This document shows, piece after piece, positions 1-6,334 of a DNA stretch of 6,334 nt. The notes below the pieces were generated by a model. The model was not told the origin of the DNA. It searched no databases and saw nothing but the letters and a program-made list of their open reading frames with translations. A program made the position numbers and the translations under genes. Each line of letters opens with the position of its first letter. Positions within the stretch are counted from its first letter, which is position 1. This stretch comes from a virus (lineage: Duplodnaviria; Heunggongvirae; Uroviricota; Caudoviricetes), in IMG/VR virus record IMGVR_UViG_2711768006_000001, one strand, 5' to 3'.

Positions 1-25
1 CAAAACTCAGCTCACCGTCGAACAC
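1..25 (-). CDS. T: Start of the gpT portion of the G-T tail assembly chaperone fusion, reached by -1 frameshift; partial, continues beyond the window start
   Basis: The -1 frame after the slippery heptamer at 25-31 stays open to position 1 (reads G-K-V-F-D-G-E-L-S-F). Lambda annotates G-T as a join that re-reads the last base of the heptamer, which corresponds to position 25 here. Confidence 0.6.
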
Positions 26-429
26 TTTCCCGCAGAAACAGGCTCTGCAGGCCCGGCGTCCTCTGCCTGTTCAGGAGCATCATTCACCACAAACTCATAC
101 ATACCGGACAGCCGGTACACCACGTTTTCAGCATGAGAAATTGCCTCTGTGGGCCAGGTGGTAAGCACTTCCTGCTCAATCTGTTTAACGGCTTCATTCA
201 TGGACGGCATCTGCGTCTTCTTCGGATGGTTATGCCACAGGGACATCGCAACCACAAAAGCGCCGGTTCTGATGGCGTCTTCCACAGTAAACTTCCGGTT
301 GCTGTCTGACTCCGCCTGTTCTGCCTGCCGTTTCATCAGGTCGAGATGCTCAATACGCTGCAGGGCTGACAGTTCAGAAAGCGTGACGGTCACACCGTTA
401 TGTTCAAATGATTCGGTTTTCAGGAACAT
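7..429 (-). CDS. G: Tail assembly chaperone gpG (140 aa)
   Basis: ORF translation MFLKTESFEHNGVTVTLSELSALQRIEHL...PVSAGKCSTVS matches my recollection of lambda gpG. Length 423 nt including stop equals lambda G. ATG at 427-429, with GGAGAG about 9 nt upstream; TGA stop at 7-9. Confidence 0.92.
   Translation of the reverse strand: MFLKTESFEHNGVTVTLSELSALQRIEHLDLMKRQAEQAESDSNRKFTVEDAIRTGAFVVAMSLWHNHPKKTQMPSMNEAVKQIEQEVLTTWPTEAISHAENVVYRLSGMYEFVVNDAPEQAEDAGPAEPVSAGKCSTVS
25..31 (-). other. Programmed -1 ribosomal frameshift slippery heptamer G GGA AAG (G-T recoding site)
   Basis: Plus strand 25-31 is ctttccc, so the minus strand reads GGGAAAG, in G frame as G|GGA|AAG. It sits 6 codons before the G stop, as in lambda. 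Confidence 0.85.
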
Positions 430-444
430 CGCTGACTCTCCGGA

Positions 445-1185
445 TTAACTGGCGGTGACGTTGATTTCTGCAACCGCAGCAAACTCACCATTACCAGATA
501 CGACCGGAATGTTGACCTTGCCTGCAGCAACACCTTTCACGGTGATGGTCATACCACTGACCGACACGGTGGCTTTTGTTTTATCCGCAGACACCGCACG
601 GAAGCTCTTGTCGGTTGCGCCATCCGGCTGGAATGCCACGGTCAGCGTGGTGCTCTGCCCTTTCACTACGGAAGCACTGGCGGGTGTCACCGTCATGCCG
701 GTCGTCGCCGTCACCGTGCTGCGATCTTCTGCCATCGACGGACGTCCCACATTGGTGACCTTCACCGTGCGGGTAATCACCTCCTTCGCCGTCACCGCCT
801 TACCGATACTGCTGACCCAGCCACGGAACACATCGACCGTGCCGTTCGGGAAGCGGATTTTATAGGCACGGGTATCACCTTCATTAAACCACGCCAGCAG
901 CGCCTGCTGCCCCTGCTCTCCGGGCATCCACGCCAGCGTGAAGCTGGTATCTCCGGCAGATTTCTGCCCCTGCCCGGTCGCAGTCCAGTCCGCATCTTCA
1001 TCATCGAGATAGCTGTCGTCATAGGACTCAGCGGTCAGTTCGCCGGGCGTCAGGTCTTTAACTTTTGCCAGACGCGACCAGTCAACGTCTGAAAGCGGGT
1101 TCGCATAAGGGTCACCGCTCCCCTTATAAACCCACAGGGTGGTCCCGGCACCTTTCACCGGCATTGTAGGATTTGGTACAGGCAT
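445..1185 (-). CDS. V: Major tail tube protein gpV (246 aa) with C-terminal Ig-like domain
   Basis: Translation from the internal ATG at 1183-1185 begins [31 protein letters not shown], which is the lambda gpV N-terminus. GAGGA lies 7 nt upstream. Length 741 nt equals lambda V. The track's longer ORF (start 1215) would overlap the U stop and is not the real start. Confidence 0.93.
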
Positions 1186-1192
1186 AGCGTCC

Positions 1193-1342
1193 TCACATTT
1201 CATAGGTAATGACATAAGTCAGATCGGCTGAACTCCACAGGCCCGCATCATCGTCGCGCCGGTAGTCATAGCCGCTGGCCACCATACTGGTGATCAAATC
1301 TGACAGTGCCGGGATATCGCTCATCACAGGATAAATCCGGGA
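1193..1342 (-). CDS. U: Tail tube terminator gpU, C-terminal 49 codons only; upstream part disrupted or missing
   Basis: Minus-strand translation gives [49 protein letters not shown] then TGA at 1193-1195, 7 nt before the V start (same spacing as lambda). Upstream of 1342 the frame hits tandem TAA codons at 1346-1351. Confidence 0.7.
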
Positions 1343-1375
1343 CNTTTATTACCATTCTCAGTTGATGCTGCAGCG

Positions 1376-1553
1376 NNNNNNNNNNNNNNNNNNNNNNNNN
1401 NNNNNNNNNNNNNNNNNNNNNNNNNNNNNNNNNNNNNNNNNNNNNNNNNNNNNNNNNNNNNNNNNNNNNNNNNNNNNNNNNNNNNNNNNNNNNNNNNNNN
1501 NNNNNNNNNNNNNNNNNNNNNNNNNNNNNNNNNNNNNNNNNNNNNNNNNNNNN
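1376..1553. other. Assembly gap or masked region (178 N) covering the U 5' part, the Z/U junction and the Z 3' part
   Basis: Run of n; flanked by partial U on the left and the Z N-terminus on the right. Confidence 0.95.
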
Positions 1554-1746
1554 TGGCCCTTTTCAGCCTGGCCCTTTCCTTTACCAGTTTCCGGCGTACC
1601 TTTGTCTCACGGGCAACCTGTGACGCAGACTGCGATATCGCGGATGAAGCAACGCGGTTAATGGCCATTGCGGCGGCACCGGGCACCGCCGTTTTGCTGA
1701 TACGGCTGAGGTTTTCAACGGCCTGCTCAAGACCTTTTATGGCCAT
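1554..1746 (-). CDS. Z: Tail completion protein gpZ, N-terminal 64 codons; remainder in gap
   Basis: Translation MAIKGLEQAVENLSRISKTAVPGAAAMAINRVASSAISQSASQVARETKVRRKLVKERARLKRA matches the lambda gpZ N-terminus. ATG at 1744-1746, with AAGGGGGA 5 nt upstream and 11 nt after the FII stop. Confidence 0.88.
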
Positions 1747-1757
1747 ACATCCCCCTT

Positions 1758-2111
1758 TCAGCGGCGACGGTTAACGGCAGGCGGTACGCCCCGTCCAAGC
1801 CAGAGATGACAACTTCCGCCATCATCCGGCGAAACCCGATCTACCCAGAAATTTTCCTCACCGATGGTCAGCGTGTCTCCACGCCGCAGCTGCCGCACCT
1901 CATCAGTCCGGACAAACAGGGACGGGCTGGAGCCTTCAACGCGCACGCCCTGTCCGGCATAGCTGATATTTTCAGGGTCATCAAAAACACCACGTATCAC
2001 CGCACCTGACTGCTCACCGGATGTCATGGTGGCTGACGTTCCCATGTACCCGCGTATCGTTTCATCGGCGCGGGCAATGGCAGCATCGAACAGGTTATCG
2101 AAATCAGCCAC
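1758..2111 (-). CDS. FII: Head-tail joining protein gpFII (117 aa), GTG start
   Basis: Translation (M)ADFDNLFDAAIARADETIRGYMGTS...WLGRGVPPAVNRRR matches lambda gpFII. Start codon is GTG (reverse complement of cac at 2109-2111), with GGGAGG 5 nt upstream. Length 354 nt equals lambda FII. Confidence 0.92.
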   Translation of the reverse strand: MADFDNLFDAAIARADETIRGYMGTSATMTSGEQSGAVIRGVFDDPENISYAGQGVRVEGSSPSLFVRTDEVRQLRRGDTLTIGEENFWVDRVSPDDGGSCHLWLGRGVPPAVNRRR

Positions 2112-2122
2112 AGCGCCTCCCG

Positions 2123-2521
2123 TTATTGCATTCTGGCCAGGCCGCGCTCTGTCATTTCGGCTGCCACACCGGCAGAGACACGAAACGCCGTTCCCGGCAG
2201 CACAAATGCCACAGGTTTATCCCGCGTGGCGTGAAGTGCATCAGTATGCAGCGTCACCAGTGCCACGACCGTGACCAGTTCAGCCGTATCCTGAATCACG
2301 GTATCCGGCTGCGCTGATACCACCTCATTTTCATGCCCGGTCAGCACATTTTCCCGGCTGAGAGGGGTGTCCTGACCGGCAGTTTCATCCGTGTCATCAA
2401 GCTCTTCTTCCAGCTCTGCCACACGAAGCGCCAGTTCTTCTTTCGTTCCCGTCAAACTGACATCGCGGTTCAATTGCTCACCCAGCTCCTGAAGACGGGC
2501 AATCAGTTCATCTTTCGTCAT
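2123..2521 (-). CDS. FI: DNA packaging / head assembly accessory protein gpFI (132 aa)
   Basis: Translation from the ATG at 2519-2521 is MTKDELIARLQELGEQLNRDVSLTGTKEELALRVAELEEELDDTDETAGQD..., the lambda gpFI N-terminus. GGAGGAG SD upstream. Length 399 nt equals lambda FI; 11 nt gap to FII. Confidence 0.9.
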   Translation of the reverse strand: MTKDELIARLQELGEQLNRDVSLTGTKEELALRVAELEEELDDTDETAGQDTPLSRENVLTGHENEVVSAQPDTVIQDTAELVTVVALVTLHTDALHATRDKPVAFVLPGTAFRVSAGVAAEMTERGLARMQ

Positions 2522-2542
2522 GAACTCCTCCACAGAGAGAAA

Positions 2543-2560
2543 ATGGCCCCGAAGGGCCAT
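2543..2560 (-). other. Perfect 7-bp GC-rich hairpin with UUCG tetraloop in the E-FI intergenic region
   Basis: Minus strand reads AUGGCCC-UUCG-GGGCCAU, starting 2 nt after the E stop (TAA at 2563-2565). It is followed by UUUCUCUCU and then the FI SD GGAGGAG. Confidence 0.6.
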
Positions 2561-2562
2561 GA

Positions 2563-3588
2563 TTACGCCAGTTGAACGGACACGAACTCATCAGGATCAG
2601 CCAGCAGCATCAGCGGTGCTGACTGAATCATGGTGAACTCACGCGCCGGATCGCCGGTGGTCACCCAGTTTTTCGGGTAACGGGCAGAAGCGTTAATGCC
2701 TTCGCGCTGTGCGTCCGCATCCTGAATGCAGCCATAGGTGCGCAGACCGCGAGCCTGAGTGTTCCCCAGCACCATCGTGTTGTCCGGCAGGAAGTTCTTT
2801 TTGACGCCGTTTTCCACGTACTGTCCGGAATACACGACGATGGCCACATCGCCATACATTCCCTTATAGGACACCGCTTTGCCCAGGTCTTTTACCGCTG
2901 TCTCCAGCTCGGAATGAGAGCCGCGACGGGTATCCAGCTTCTCCTTGACGGCTTTGAAGGAACGGAACAGCGCCCAGCCTTTCGGATCGAACACGATGAT
3001 ATTCACCACACCGCTGGCGTTCAGCGCGTAGGCTTCGATATCGTCGGTCGGGTCATACGTGGACTTGTCACGCTTGCTCCACTCCGTACCGCCGGACTGC
3101 GTGATGTTGTTCGCCGCACTGCGGCCCATATCCACCTCAACCGGATCGAAGGCTTCACCGGTCATGGTGTATTTGCCCTTGAGCACGGCAGAAACTGCCT
3201 GCATCTCTTCGACCTGAGCAATGGCCAGCTCTTCGTCACGCATGTTCTGCATGATGATGCGACGGCGGCGGTAAGCCGGGTCCGCCAGATTCTGCGGATC
3301 TTCATCCGGCAGGCGACGCAGGGTCATCTGCGGATTCACCTCATGCTTGGGTTTGACATATCCCGGCGTAAATTCAGAGGTGGAGCCGCCACGGGAACGG
3401 ATAACCTCACCGGAAACAATCGGCGAAACGTACAGCGCCATGTTTACCAGTCCCGGAATTTGTGAGAGATAGACTTTCTCCGTGGTGAAGGGATAGCTCT
3501 CACGGAAAAAGAGACGCAGAAACAGCGGATCAAACTTAAATTTCTGCTCATTTGCCGCCAGCAGCTGGGCGGTTGTGTACATCGACAT
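2563..3588 (-). CDS. E: Major capsid protein gpE (341 aa, HK97 fold)
   Basis: Translation from the ATG at 3586-3588 is MSMYTTAQLLAANEQKFKFDPLFLRLFFRESYPFTTEKVYLSQIPGLVNMALYVSPIVSGE...DPDEFVSVQLA, the lambda gpE sequence. Length 1026 nt equals lambda E. The track's upstream extension (MWLFLRDFF) lies in the D-E intergenic region. Confidence 0.95.
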   Translation of the reverse strand: MSMYTTAQLLAANEQKFKFDPLFLRLFFRESYPFTTEKVYLSQIPGLVNMALYVSPIVSGEVIRSRGGSTSEFTPGYVKPKHEVNPQMTLRRLPDEDPQNLADPAYRRRRIIMQNMRDEELAIAQVEEMQAVSAVLKGKYTMTGEAFDPVEVDMGRSAANNITQSGGTEWSKRDKSTYDPTDDIEAYALNASGVVNIIVFDPKGWALFRSFKAVKEKLDTRRGSHSELETAVKDLGKAVSYKGMYGDVAIVVYSGQYVENGVKKNFLPDNTMVLGNTQARGLRTYGCIQDADAQREGINASARYPKNWVTTGDPAREFTMIQSAPLMLLADPDEFVSVQLA

Positions 3589-3621
3589 AAAAAAATCCCG
3601 TAAAAAAAGCCACACAGGCGG

Positions 3622-4019
3622 NNNNNNNNNNNNNNNNNNNNNNNNNNNNNNNNNNNNNNNNNNNNNNNNNNNNNNNNNNNNNNNNNNNNNNNNNNNNNNN
3701 NNNNNNNNNNNNNNNNNNNNNNNNNNNNNNNNNNNNNNNNNNNNNNNNNNNNNNNNNNNNNNNNNNNNNNNNNNNNNNNNNNNNNNNNNNNNNNNNNNNN
3801 NNNNNNNNNNNNNNNNNNNNNNNNNNNNNNNNNNNNNNNNNNNNNNNNNNNNNNNNNNNNNNNNNNNNNNNNNNNNNNNNNNNNNNNNNNNNNNNNNNNN
3901 NNNNNNNNNNNNNNNNNNNNNNNNNNNNNNNNNNNNNNNNNNNNNNNNNNNNNNNNNNNNNNNNNNNNNNNNNNNNNNNNNNNNNNNNNNNNNNNNNNNN
4001 NNNNNNNNNNNNNNNNNNN
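3622..4019. other. Assembly gap or masked region (398 N) covering most of D and the distal D-E intergenic region
   Basis: Run of n between the D N-terminus (4020-4115) and E-proximal intergenic sequence (3589-3621). Confidence 0.95.
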
Positions 4020-4115
4020 CGCTTTCGCACTCAATCCGCCGGGCGCGGTTGCGGTATGAGCCGGGTCACTGTTGCCCAGCGGCTGGTAATGGGTAAAGGT
4101 TTCTTTGCTCGTCAT
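4020..4115 (-). CDS. D: Head decoration protein gpD, N-terminal 32 codons; remainder in gap
   Basis: Translation from the ATG at 4113-4115 is [32 protein letters not shown], the lambda gpD N-terminus. AAGGGA SD upstream; 9 nt after the C stop (TAA at 4125-4127), the same spacing as lambda. Confidence 0.88.
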
Positions 4116-4124
4116 AAACATCCC

Positions 4125-4609
4125 TTACACTGGTGTGTTCAGCAAATCGTTAACGGCATCAGATGCCGGGTTACCTGCAGCCAGCGGTGCCGGTGCCCCC
4201 TGCATCAGACGATCCAGCGCAGTGTCACTGCGCGTCTGTGCACTCTGTGGTGCTGCGGCCAGAATACGGCGGGCCGTTTCCACGGTCATACCGGGGGTTT
4301 CGGCCAGCACGCGTGCCTGTTCTTCGCGTCCGTGAGCCTCCTCACAGTTGAGGATCCCCATAATGCGACTGTTTTCTGCCGCAACCGCTGCGGTGATCTG
4401 CGCGTTCACGTCCGGCTGCGCCGCGCTGGCGTTCTCGCCCTCCGTCGCTTGCACCACGCCAGTAACGTCAGCCTGCGAAGCAGTGGCTGAAACAGTTGTT
4501 GATTGAGTCTCTTTGGTCATTCGCCCTCCTGAGAGACGGGATTTACGTGCATCCAGTGCATCACGCATGACGGTGATCGCATCGGTACTGTTAACAAGTT
4601 CATCAGCCN
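4125..4609 (-). CDS. C: gpC C-terminal portion, which is also the scaffold protein Nu3 C-terminal portion (nested in-frame gene); 5' part in gap
   Basis: Translation ADELVNSTDAITVMRDALDARKSRLSGGRMTKETQSTTVSATASQADVTG...AGNPASDAVNDLLNTPV matches the shared lambda gpC/Nu3 C-terminus. The Nu3 internal start would lie in the gap. Confidence 0.88.
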
Positions 4610-4924
4610 NNNNNNNNNNNNNNNNNNNNNNNNNNNNNNNNNNNNNNNNNNNNNNNNNNNNNNNNNNNNNNNNNNNNNNNNNNNNNNNNNNNNNNNNNNN
4701 NNNNNNNNNNNNNNNNNNNNNNNNNNNNNNNNNNNNNNNNNNNNNNNNNNNNNNNNNNNNNNNNNNNNNNNNNNNNNNNNNNNNNNNNNNNNNNNNNNNN
4801 NNNNNNNNNNNNNNNNNNNNNNNNNNNNNNNNNNNNNNNNNNNNNNNNNNNNNNNNNNNNNNNNNNNNNNNNNNNNNNNNNNNNNNNNNNNNNNNNNNNN
4901 NNNNNNNNNNNNNNNNNNNNNNNN
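4610..4924. other. Assembly gap or masked region (315 N) inside gene C, including the expected Nu3 start
   Basis: Run of n; both flanks are in-register pieces of lambda gpC. Confidence 0.95.
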
Positions 4925-5335
4925 CACCATTCCGCCCGGTGTGTCCATATCGAGCAGAATGCCGTCCACCATCGGGTCGCTGGCAGCCTGTTGCAGACGG
5001 GCGATAATGCCGTTGTAACCGGTCATCCCCGAGTACGGCTGCAGCGCCCGCGTCCGGCTGACCAGCGTGCCGGACACCGGCAGCACGGCGATGCCGTTCA
5101 TTACCTGATAACTGCGGGCCTGTCGTGGTCCGTCATCATCACCGGATAACGCCAGCGCCGCGGGTGCCTCTCCGGCAGTCAGGCTGTCGCCGGATACTGC
5201 ATCCGTCAGGCAGCTGATCCCAAGCTGGCCTGCAAGCGCACAAAAGAAAACCCGCGCATAGGCGGGTTCAAGCATCAGCGGCTCATTAAAAGCCATGCTG
5301 GCAATATGCGGGAGATTACGCAGCTCTGCTGTCAC
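4925..5335 (-). CDS. C: gpC N-terminal portion (head maturation protease / minor capsid protein C), GTG start, 137 codons before gap
   Basis: Translation from the GTG at 5333-5335 is (M)TAELRNLPHIASMAFNEPLMLEPAYARVFFCALAGQLGIS...DPMVDGILLDMDTPGGMV, the lambda gpC N-terminus. GGAGGAG SD 4-5 nt upstream. Overlaps the B 3' end by 20 nt as in lambda. The track's extension to 5470 is B coding sequence read in the C frame. Confidence 0.88.
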
Positions 5336-6334
5336 TCTTCTCCTCCTCTGTTGATTGTCGCAGCCCGGATTCAAATGCCGCAGCCGCCCAGGCGGGCGGT
5401 TTAAGACCAGCTGCGCGGCGCTCCATCGTTTCACGGACCTGCTGGGCAAAAATTTCCTGATAGTCGTCACCGCGTTTCGCGCACTCTTTCTCGTAGGTGC
5501 TCAGTCCGGCTTCTATCAGCATCACCGCTTCCTGAACTTCTTTCAGACCATCGATGGCCATACGACCGGAGCCTATCCAGTCGCAGTTCCCCCAGGCACT
5601 GCGGGCTTCCTGAAAACTGAAGCGCGCTTTTGAAGGTAACGTCACCACGCGGCGAACGATGGCCTCTTCCAGCCAGCACAGAAACATCTGGCTCGCCTGA
5701 CGGGATGCGACGAATTTTCGCCGCCCCATAAAGTACGCCCACGACTCGTTCGCACTGGCCCGTGCCGTGGAGTAGCTCATCTGGGCGTAATTCCGGGAAA
5801 GTTGCTCATACGAGACACCCAGCCCGGCAGCGATATACCGCAACAGTGACTGCTCAAACACGGAGTAGCCGTTATCCGTGTCCTGAGCCGTCTGCAGGTT
5901 CAGTGAGTCCCCCGGCATCAGGTGCGGCACTTTTGCGCCTCCCAGACGGACCGGTGCTGCGGCGTAATACGCGGCAATTTCACCAATCCAGCCCGTCAGC
6001 CTTTCCCGCTGCTCCTTACTGTTCGCGCCCAGAATAAAATCCATCGCTGACTGCGTATCCAGCTCACTTTCAATGGTGGCGGCATACATCGCCTTCACAA
6101 TGGCGCTCTGCAGCTGCGTGTTCTGCAGCGTGTCGAGCATCTTCATCTGCTCCATTACGCTGTAAAACACATTTGCACCGCGGGTCTGCCCGTCCTCCAC
6201 GGGTTCAAAAACGTGAATGAACGAGGCGCGCCCGCCGGGTAACTCACGGGGTATCCATGTCCATTTCTGCGGCATCCAGCCAGGATAGCCGTCCTCGCTG
6301 ACGTAATATCCCAGCGCCGCACCGCTGTCATTAA
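5316..6334 (-). CDS. B: Portal protein gpB, C-terminal roughly 339 codons; 5' end beyond window
   Basis: Translation ...YYVSEDGYPGWMPQKWTWIPRELPGGRASFIHVFEPVEDGQTRGANVFYSVMEQMKMLDT...STEEEKSDSRAA matches the lambda gpB C-terminal region. The frame is open to the window end; TAA stop at 5316-5318. Confidence 0.92.
   Translation of the reverse strand, partial: NDSGAALGYYVSEDGYPGWMPQKWTWIPRELPGGRASFIHVFEPVEDGQTRGANVFYSVMEQMKMLDTLQNTQLQSAIVKAMYAATIESELDTQSAMDFILGANSKEQRERLTGWIGEIAAYYAAAPVRLGGAKVPHLMPGDSLNLQTAQDTDNGYSVFEQSLLRYIAAGLGVSYEQLSRNYAQMSYSTARASANESWAYFMGRRKFVASRQASQMFLCWLEEAIVRRVVTLPSKARFSFQEARSAWGNCDWIGSGRMAIDGLKEVQEAVMLIEAGLSTYEKECAKRGDDYQEIFAQQVRETMERRAAGLKPPAWAAAAFESGLRQSTEEEKSDSRAA

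Follow-up and report, generated by a model that had tools for sequence, protein, structure and literature searches.

The window, i.e. the entire stretch of 6334 nt that was analysed, harbours head and tail genes on a single (minus) strand in the order G-V-U-Z-FII-FI-E-D-C/nu3-B, which is that of a Lambdavirus-type module and is identical in order and orientation to genes G to B of Escherichia phage lambda (NC_001416 / J02459). The features are compiled in Table 1 together with their positions in the lambda reference locus L001, the reverse complement of NC_001416 2919-10639. At the left edge only the start of the T reading frame is included, which in lambda is annotated at L001 91-525. The visible coding sequence appears well preserved throughout. 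Compared to lambda, G shows 7 synonymous and 5 nonsynonymous changes, V 21 and 6, and E 14 and 3. As for the genes which are visible in part, 2 synonymous changes are present within the 50 visible codons of U, 3 within the open 5' part of Z, and 17 synonymous along with 1 nonsynonymous change within the 338 visible codons of B. No stop occurs in V, in the visible portions of U and B or in the 32 visible codons of D. When the nine genes from G to B which are visible in full or in part are taken together, 87 synonymous differences from lambda are opposed to 33 nonsynonymous ones, and the approximately 1,770 visible codons of ten genes contain neither an internal stop nor a frameshift. Likewise, a search for marks of prophage decay (frameshifts, stops, IS elements) in the 5441 visible bases yielded none. 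The exact E protein of the window is common and occurs in complete prophages, being recorded in 6064 blocks of a public collection. At ten loci carrying this very E protein, Pfam matches precomputed on the called genes of these loci, and hence not on the window's own proteins, include Phage_cap_E, HDPD, Peptidase_S49, Phage_portal_2, Minor_tail_Z and Phage_tail_U among others.

Table 1. N-free pieces, joins and genes of the window with the corresponding positions in lambda (L001).
Feature	Window	Strand	L001	Remark
Piece	1-1343		501-1843	ungapped alignment
Piece	1345-1375		2092-2122	ungapped alignment, 1 mismatch
Piece	1554-3621		2471-4538	ungapped alignment
Piece	4020-4608		4798-5386	ungapped alignment
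Piece	4925-6334		5812-7221	ungapped alignment
Single N, contig join	1344	.	flanks 1843, 2092	248 nt in lambda and all relatives: 5' 245 nt of U (4-nt U/Z overlap included) and 3 nt more of the Z end
31-nt island, 3' end of Z	1345-1375	-		between single N and 178-N run
N-run of 178	1376-1553	.	flanks 2122, 2471	348 nt in relatives, Z interior; 170 too short
N-run of 398	3622-4019	.	flanks 4538, 4798	259 nt in relatives: 22-nt D-E spacer and 3' 237 nt of D; 139 too long
N-run of 316	4609-4924	.	flanks 5386, 5812	425 nt in relatives, C interior including nu3 start; 109 too short
T reading frame (G-T frameshift product in lambda)	1-25	-	501-525	first 25 nt, rest cut by window edge
G, tail assembly chaperone	7-429	-	507-929	complete, 140 aa, ORF open
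V, major tail protein	445-1185	-	945-1685	complete, 246 aa
U, tail terminator	1193-1343	-	1693-1843	3' 151 nt only; first 245 nt missing at single N
Z	1554-1746	-	2471-2663	5' 193 nt
FII, head-tail joining	1758-2111	-	2675-3028	complete, 117 aa
FI, DNA packaging chaperone	2123-2521	-	3040-3438	complete, 132 aa
E, major capsid protein	2563-3588	-	3480-4505	complete, 341 aa
D, head decoration	4020-4115	-	4798-4893	5' 96 nt
C / nested nu3, protease and scaffold	4125-4608	-	4903-5386	3' 484 nt, open in lambda frame
C	4925-5335	-	5812-6222	5' 411 nt, open in lambda frame
B, portal	5316-6334	-	6203-7221	3' 1019 nt, rest cut by window edge

The window corresponds to lambda 3419-10139, a region of 6721 nt, and thus falls short of it by a net 387 nt. 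Each of its five N-free pieces (1343, 31, 2068, 589 and 1410 nt) can be aligned to lambda without a single indel, and all of them are collinear in order and orientation. In total, 130 substitutions are observed in the 5441 visible bases, corresponding to an identity of 97.6%. The initial annotation, which had used the flanking genes as exactly matching rulers, was hence correct in taking them as collinear and ungapped but not in taking them as exact. The distances it had derived are reproduced with the lambda annotation: 554 nt instead of 971 nt from the Z start to the U stop, 527 nt instead of 388 nt from the D start to the E start, and 1211 nt, which is no multiple of three, instead of 1320 nt for C. 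The joins, however, number four rather than the three reported since the single N at position 1344 had been overlooked. Consequently, the shortfall of about 417 nt in the Z/U region, the total of which holds, is not that of one gap but is made up of 247 nt at the single N and 170 nt at the 178-N run. Altogether, 1280 nt of lambda sequence are hidden, in place of which the window holds 893 N, and the errors of the four N lengths relative to lambda run in both directions (-247, -170, +139 and -109). No deletion or insertion junction which has been sequenced through is present in the window, every length discrepancy falling on an N.

Taken literally, these lengths would describe a defective prophage which has lost about 247 and 170 nt in U and Z and about 109 nt in C and has gained about 139 nt in or next to D. 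At face value they indeed put U, Z and C out of frame, and length variation of the module does occur in some E. coli genomes in the form of IS insertions and of one variant of 6643 nt. Yet, all four indels would have to coincide with unsequenced bases and none with the visible 81% of the lambda-length region, the probability of which amounts to about 0.19^4, i.e. roughly 0.001, if indels are randomly placed. Moreover, what is visible of U, Z, D and C forms open frames with mostly synonymous changes, and relatives of 99.8% identity (see below) are full length. We therefore regard this reading, which the initial annotation had put forward as an alternative and for which no positive support emerged, as highly improbable. 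There is a similarly slight chance that at least one N-run length is near the truth and reflects a real change, such as some 139 additional nucleotides between D and E (due either to a small insertion or to a decoration gene of altered form) or the deletion of most of U. In that event we would be dealing with a lambda-like prophage which is defective or has been remodelled.

The spacing of the pieces was compared with that in gap-free relatives. In all 16 of them (97-99.8% identical) the pieces are separated by 627, 259 and 425 nt, where the 627 nt lie between the first piece and the one carrying Z, FII, FI and E and so span the single N, the 31-nt island and the 178-N run. The spacing of 259 nt is additionally found in two further draft contigs. 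In ten of the 16 relatives, the called genes comprise 439 aa for C, 110 aa for D, 192 aa for Z and 131 aa for U. The closest relatives, the IMG/VR prophage contigs L004, L005 and L006 (IMGVR_UViG_2667527914_000011, IMGVR_UViG_2663762886_000011 and IMGVR_UViG_2627853732_000001), are identical to each other across the 6721-nt region and differ from the window at 10 positions in 5410 aligned bases (99.8%); residue 167 of E, for instance, is V in these relatives and G in the window. They carry the 31-nt island at the collinear position but, unlike the window, are free of gaps and possess lambda length with all three spacings mentioned above. Five of the 10 differences are clustered within 115 nt of gene E. 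Closure of the gaps by means of relatives is a proxy only as the closest of them is 99.8% and not 100% identical.

The same picture is obtained from complete E. coli genomes. Among the best 25 places, 21 span exactly 6721 nt, and a spread sample contained 44 full-length places, 41 of which measure 6712-6730 nt. Those which deviate are IS insertions and the one place of 6643 nt. None of the deviating places is near 6334 nt, and the 387-nt shortfall of the window was not seen at any of the places examined. The module as such is shared with the lambda-like prophage of the complete E. coli genome NZ_CP027366 (98.4% identity) as well as with phage Chlobot (98.2%). Of 5426 complete genomes, 2979 possess a place with a coverage of 80% or more of the window, and E. 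coli genomes which carry the module contain it in a median of 2 and a maximum of 9 copies.

The single N at position 1344 and the 31-nt island following it were examined more closely. The island differs from what would be expected to follow position 1343. Instead, it is an exact copy of L002, L003 and L006 at the collinear position of Z, and in E. coli genomes it is found some 247 nt further along, inside the gene annotated as 'phage tail protein' (Z). Two other assignments of the island, as a diverged U allele and as the end of an IS element, were considered and discarded since it exactly copies collinear Z sequence located 248 nt beyond the position where it stands. Microhomology which could explain a real deletion was sought at the 1344 junction and not found. 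Furthermore, sequencing through a genuine deletion would have yielded a called base rather than an N. A mini-contig of k-mer size placed in a scaffold fits the one-N join and the island better than a deletion junction does. Some scaffolders write a single N where the gap estimate is zero or negative, and presumably this was the case at position 1344.

The island is difficult to reconcile with masking, be it deliberate or due to low quality, in which case the Ns would cover real sequence at its literal length. One sequence collection is described as being masked in a few places, while direct evidence of such a treatment is not provided by the window, but an exact stretch of 196 nt from the window is absent from this collection, which consists of genome contigs. 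Hiding one base while leaving an island of 31 nt makes little sense, and masking would entail the same four hidden indels as the literal reading of the lengths. It is thus barely conceivable.

Gap sizes would be meaningless if the scaffold were a chimera of pieces from at least two lambdoid prophages of one genome whose paralogous copies had been cross-linked by read pairs. The exact sequence of the window would then not exist at any one locus. The copy number of the module in carrying genomes would permit this, conflicting links would give estimates which are wrong in both directions, and the clustering of five differences noted above could be accounted for. In contrast, all five pieces are nearest to one lineage, with 2, 0, 6, 1 and 1 mismatches to L006 (99.7-100% identity), while 136-179 positions separate the window from each of the other ten E-matched loci. 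As all pieces point to the same lineage we favour one source prophage. Since, in addition, their order and orientation are perfectly collinear, a chimera seems improbable, if somewhat less so than real indels or masking.

In our view, the window is a scaffolded draft of an ordinary lambda-like prophage in which the N lengths have been estimated and the apparent indels in U, Z, D and C are artefacts (probability about 0.88). The initial annotation had preferred arbitrary or estimated scaffold gaps as well, and this preference is supported by the spacings in the relatives, the open visible genes and the one-N join with its island. The host is most likely E. coli or a close relative. Being unequal and not round, the four N lengths do not represent fixed placeholders. 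Unconventional, unequal N-runs separate contigs which are in order, and their lengths disagree with closed genomes of near identity (99.8%). In its variable, non-round N-runs, its ordered contigs and its minimal one-N join the window resembles paired-read drafts with gaps of estimated length. A scaffolder would have placed five contig pieces in the right order and orientation, and the joining lengths of 1, 178, 398 and 316 N would then have been estimated, probably from read pairs, and not measured. In reality, the pieces most likely lie at the distances known from lambda, namely 248, 348, 259 and 425 nt, with which U, Z, D and C become full-length and in frame.

Gap-size estimates are reported to be less stable where links involve small contigs (PMC4262078), and scaffolders are reported to return negative estimates where contigs ought to adjoin or overlap each other (PMC3158087, PMC5368935). 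A point against estimated gaps is that a tight paired-end library would be expected to give smaller errors than 170-247 nt.

N-run lengths in draft scaffolds provide no basis for biological lengths, and the value of the present case is one of caution only. Wherever a gene caller crosses such runs, U, Z, D and C will come out truncated or with a shifted frame although the lambda-like prophage is most likely ordinary and intact, and even one N can conceal about 250 nt and set a piece of one gene beside another.

As to the origin of the contig breaks, several related lambdoid prophages within one genome may have confused short-read assembly. Two independent NCBI drafts which carry the same lineage contain contigs, about 1 kb in length, that begin at a distance of 38 nt from the edge of gap 3. 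The multi-copy nature of the module and these contig ends fit breaks driven by repeats. When a sequence cause was sought within the hidden stretches as represented by the closest relative, no notable internal direct or inverted repeats were detected; the G+C content of these stretches is ordinary (0.55-0.60).

Comparison with lambda 3419-10139, to which the window is 97.6% identical (at most 98.2% to other phages and 98.5% to prophages of complete E. coli genomes), shows that all N-free pieces align end to end without any indel (see the table). The pieces are separated by four N-runs, namely a single N at 1344 and runs of 178 N (1376-1553), 398 N (3622-4019) and 316 N (4609-4924). Standing in for 259 nt of lambda, the 398-N run is 139 nt too long, and the 316-N run, standing in for 425 nt, is 109 nt too short, while the interval between 1343 and 1554 comprises 210 nt in the window versus 627 nt in lambda (417 too few). 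The net shortfall is 387 nt (6721 minus 6334).

Pieces and genes of the window relative to L001, the reverse complement of lambda (NC_001416) 2919-10639
Feature	Window (nt)	Strand	L001 (nt)	Basis or remark
Piece	1-1343		501-1843	ungapped alignment
Piece, Z 3' end	1345-1375		2092-2122	1 mismatch to lambda
Piece	1554-3621		2471-4538	ungapped alignment
Piece	4020-4608		4798-5386	ungapped alignment
Piece	4925-6334		5812-7221	ungapped alignment
T frame (first 25 nt), then G, V, U 3' part		minus		lambda annotation
Z, 31-nt bit of 3' end and separate 5' part		minus		lambda annotation
FII, FI, E		minus		lambda annotation
D, 5' part		minus		lambda annotation
C, 3' and 5' parts, with nu3 nested inside C		minus		lambda annotation
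B, 3' two-thirds		minus		lambda annotation

On the lambda alignment we could reproduce all spans by which the initial annotation had measured these discrepancies (554 versus 971 nt, 527 versus 388 nt and 1211 versus 1320 nt). Its length mismatches are thus borne out, but the number of joins has to be raised from three to four, the single N at 1344 being a join as well. Rather than continuing U, the 31 nt following this N match the 3' end of Z at a site 248 nt farther on, and the match is exact in phage Chlobot, in E. coli 89-3156 and in the closest relatives. It follows that the single N is a fourth join which hides 248 nt, and that 348 nt rather than 595 are hidden by the 178-N run. The join sets Z sequence directly after U sequence; a search for microhomology between both sides of the junction found none.

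The gaps were closed by proxy only, by means of stand-in relatives 99.8% identical to the window. A search for exact matches to 196 nt of the window retrieved three IMG/VR prophage contigs (L004-L006: IMGVR_UViG_2667527914_000011, IMGVR_UViG_2663762886_000011 and IMGVR_UViG_2627853732_000001), which are mutually identical over the full 6721-nt region and contain no N at all. Aligned to the window over 5410 positions, they show only 10 differences. In these contigs the window pieces lie 627, 259 and 425 nt apart, as in lambda, and the same spacing is present in Chlobot, in E. coli 89-3156 and in ten loci coding for exactly the E protein of the window, i.e. in 16 of the 16 relatives compared. 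The genes called in the ten E-matched loci encode proteins of 439 (C), 110 (D), 192 (Z) and 131 (U) amino acids. Two short NCBI draft contigs which extend over D (L017, GCA_017243855.1, and L018, GCA_050853855.1) show the 259 nt, too. Translation of the visible gene parts in the lambda frames revealed no internal stop or frameshift in any of the ten genes (G, V, U, Z, FII, FI, E, D, C and B), whose summed differences from lambda amount to 87 synonymous and 33 nonsynonymous ones. The lambda-length spacing in the relatives and the intact visible genes support the reading favoured in the initial annotation, that of arbitrary or estimated scaffold gaps, and hence an assembly artefact in a well-known type of prophage.

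If the N lengths were literal and reflected real indels, which we consider very improbable, the reading frame would be lost in U, in Z and in C since none of the numbers 247, 170 and 109 is divisible by 3. Moreover, four independent indels would all have to fall within the unsequenced 19% and none within the visible 81% (probability about 0.001 if randomly placed), and a real deletion would have been read through by the sequencing reads without leaving N. Of 5426 complete E. coli genomes, 2979 contain a place that covers 80% or more of the window. Its span is exactly 6721 nt in 21 of the best 25 places, the remaining four bearing IS66-like or IS621 insertions. In a second sample, drawn at regular intervals along the ranking, the span lies between 6712 and 6730 nt in 41 of 44 full-length places, the exceptions being two with an IS66-like element and one of 6643 nt. 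No sampled place has a span like the 6334 nt of the window. Real length variation in this module does exist, yet as whole IS elements and not as indels of 100-400 nt. The insertions (IS66-like ISCro1 in copies H26, H27, H39 and H109; IS621 in H49 and H50) measure 1.3-2.7 kb and sit in otherwise near-identical module copies.

The window is most likely a scaffolded short-read draft whose N lengths look like distance estimates from read pairs; being unequal and not round, the four lengths are not fixed placeholders. Some scaffolders write a single N for negative or zero estimates, and the one-N join may have arisen from a gap estimate of zero or less. For Meraculous and ALLPATHS-LG, negative estimates have been described where contigs ought to abut or overlap (PMC3158087, PMC5368935). 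The 31-nt island would be a k-mer-sized mini-contig put into the scaffold. Gap-size estimates are reported to be steadier when the linked contigs are large (PMC4262078, citing Sahlin et al. 2012); two of the window pieces, of 31 nt and 589 nt, are not large. Same-length masking of real sequence is unsupported and very improbable. A single masked base beside a 31-nt island speaks against it, as does the absence of the window, searched for by an exact 196-nt stretch, from the collection described as partly masked.

In the scaffold-gap reading, the contigs would presumably have broken at the boundaries of sequence shared between prophages. This fits the number of related module copies per carrying genome (median 2, up to 9) and the starts of L017 and L018. 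These contigs of about 1 kb, from two independent drafts of the same prophage lineage as the window, both begin at the same base in gene C (window 4570), at a distance of 38 nt from the 316-N run, which suggests a recurrent repeat boundary breaking short-read assemblies. The hidden stretches were unremarkable when inspected for unusual G+C or repeats. A genome with several prophages could also yield a chimeric scaffold with pieces from different copies, but this is unlikely, all five pieces being nearest to one lineage (2, 0, 6, 1 and 1 mismatches to L006).

Of the ten positions at which the window departs from L004-L006, five (2986, 2989, 3088, 3089 and 3100) lie close together in a 115-nt part of gene E (window 2986-3100), one of them changing E residue 167 (G in the window, V in the contigs). 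The window equals lambda at four of the five positions, the exception being 3088. The cluster has the look of a small patch of ordinary recombination, or else of changes specific to the lineage of the three contigs. The plus-strand CTTTCCC at window 25-31, GGGAAAG in the direction of the genes, lies 16-24 nt upstream of the stop codon of G (7-9), a position which, going by sequence, we take to be that of the slippery heptamer of the lambda G-T -1 frameshift.
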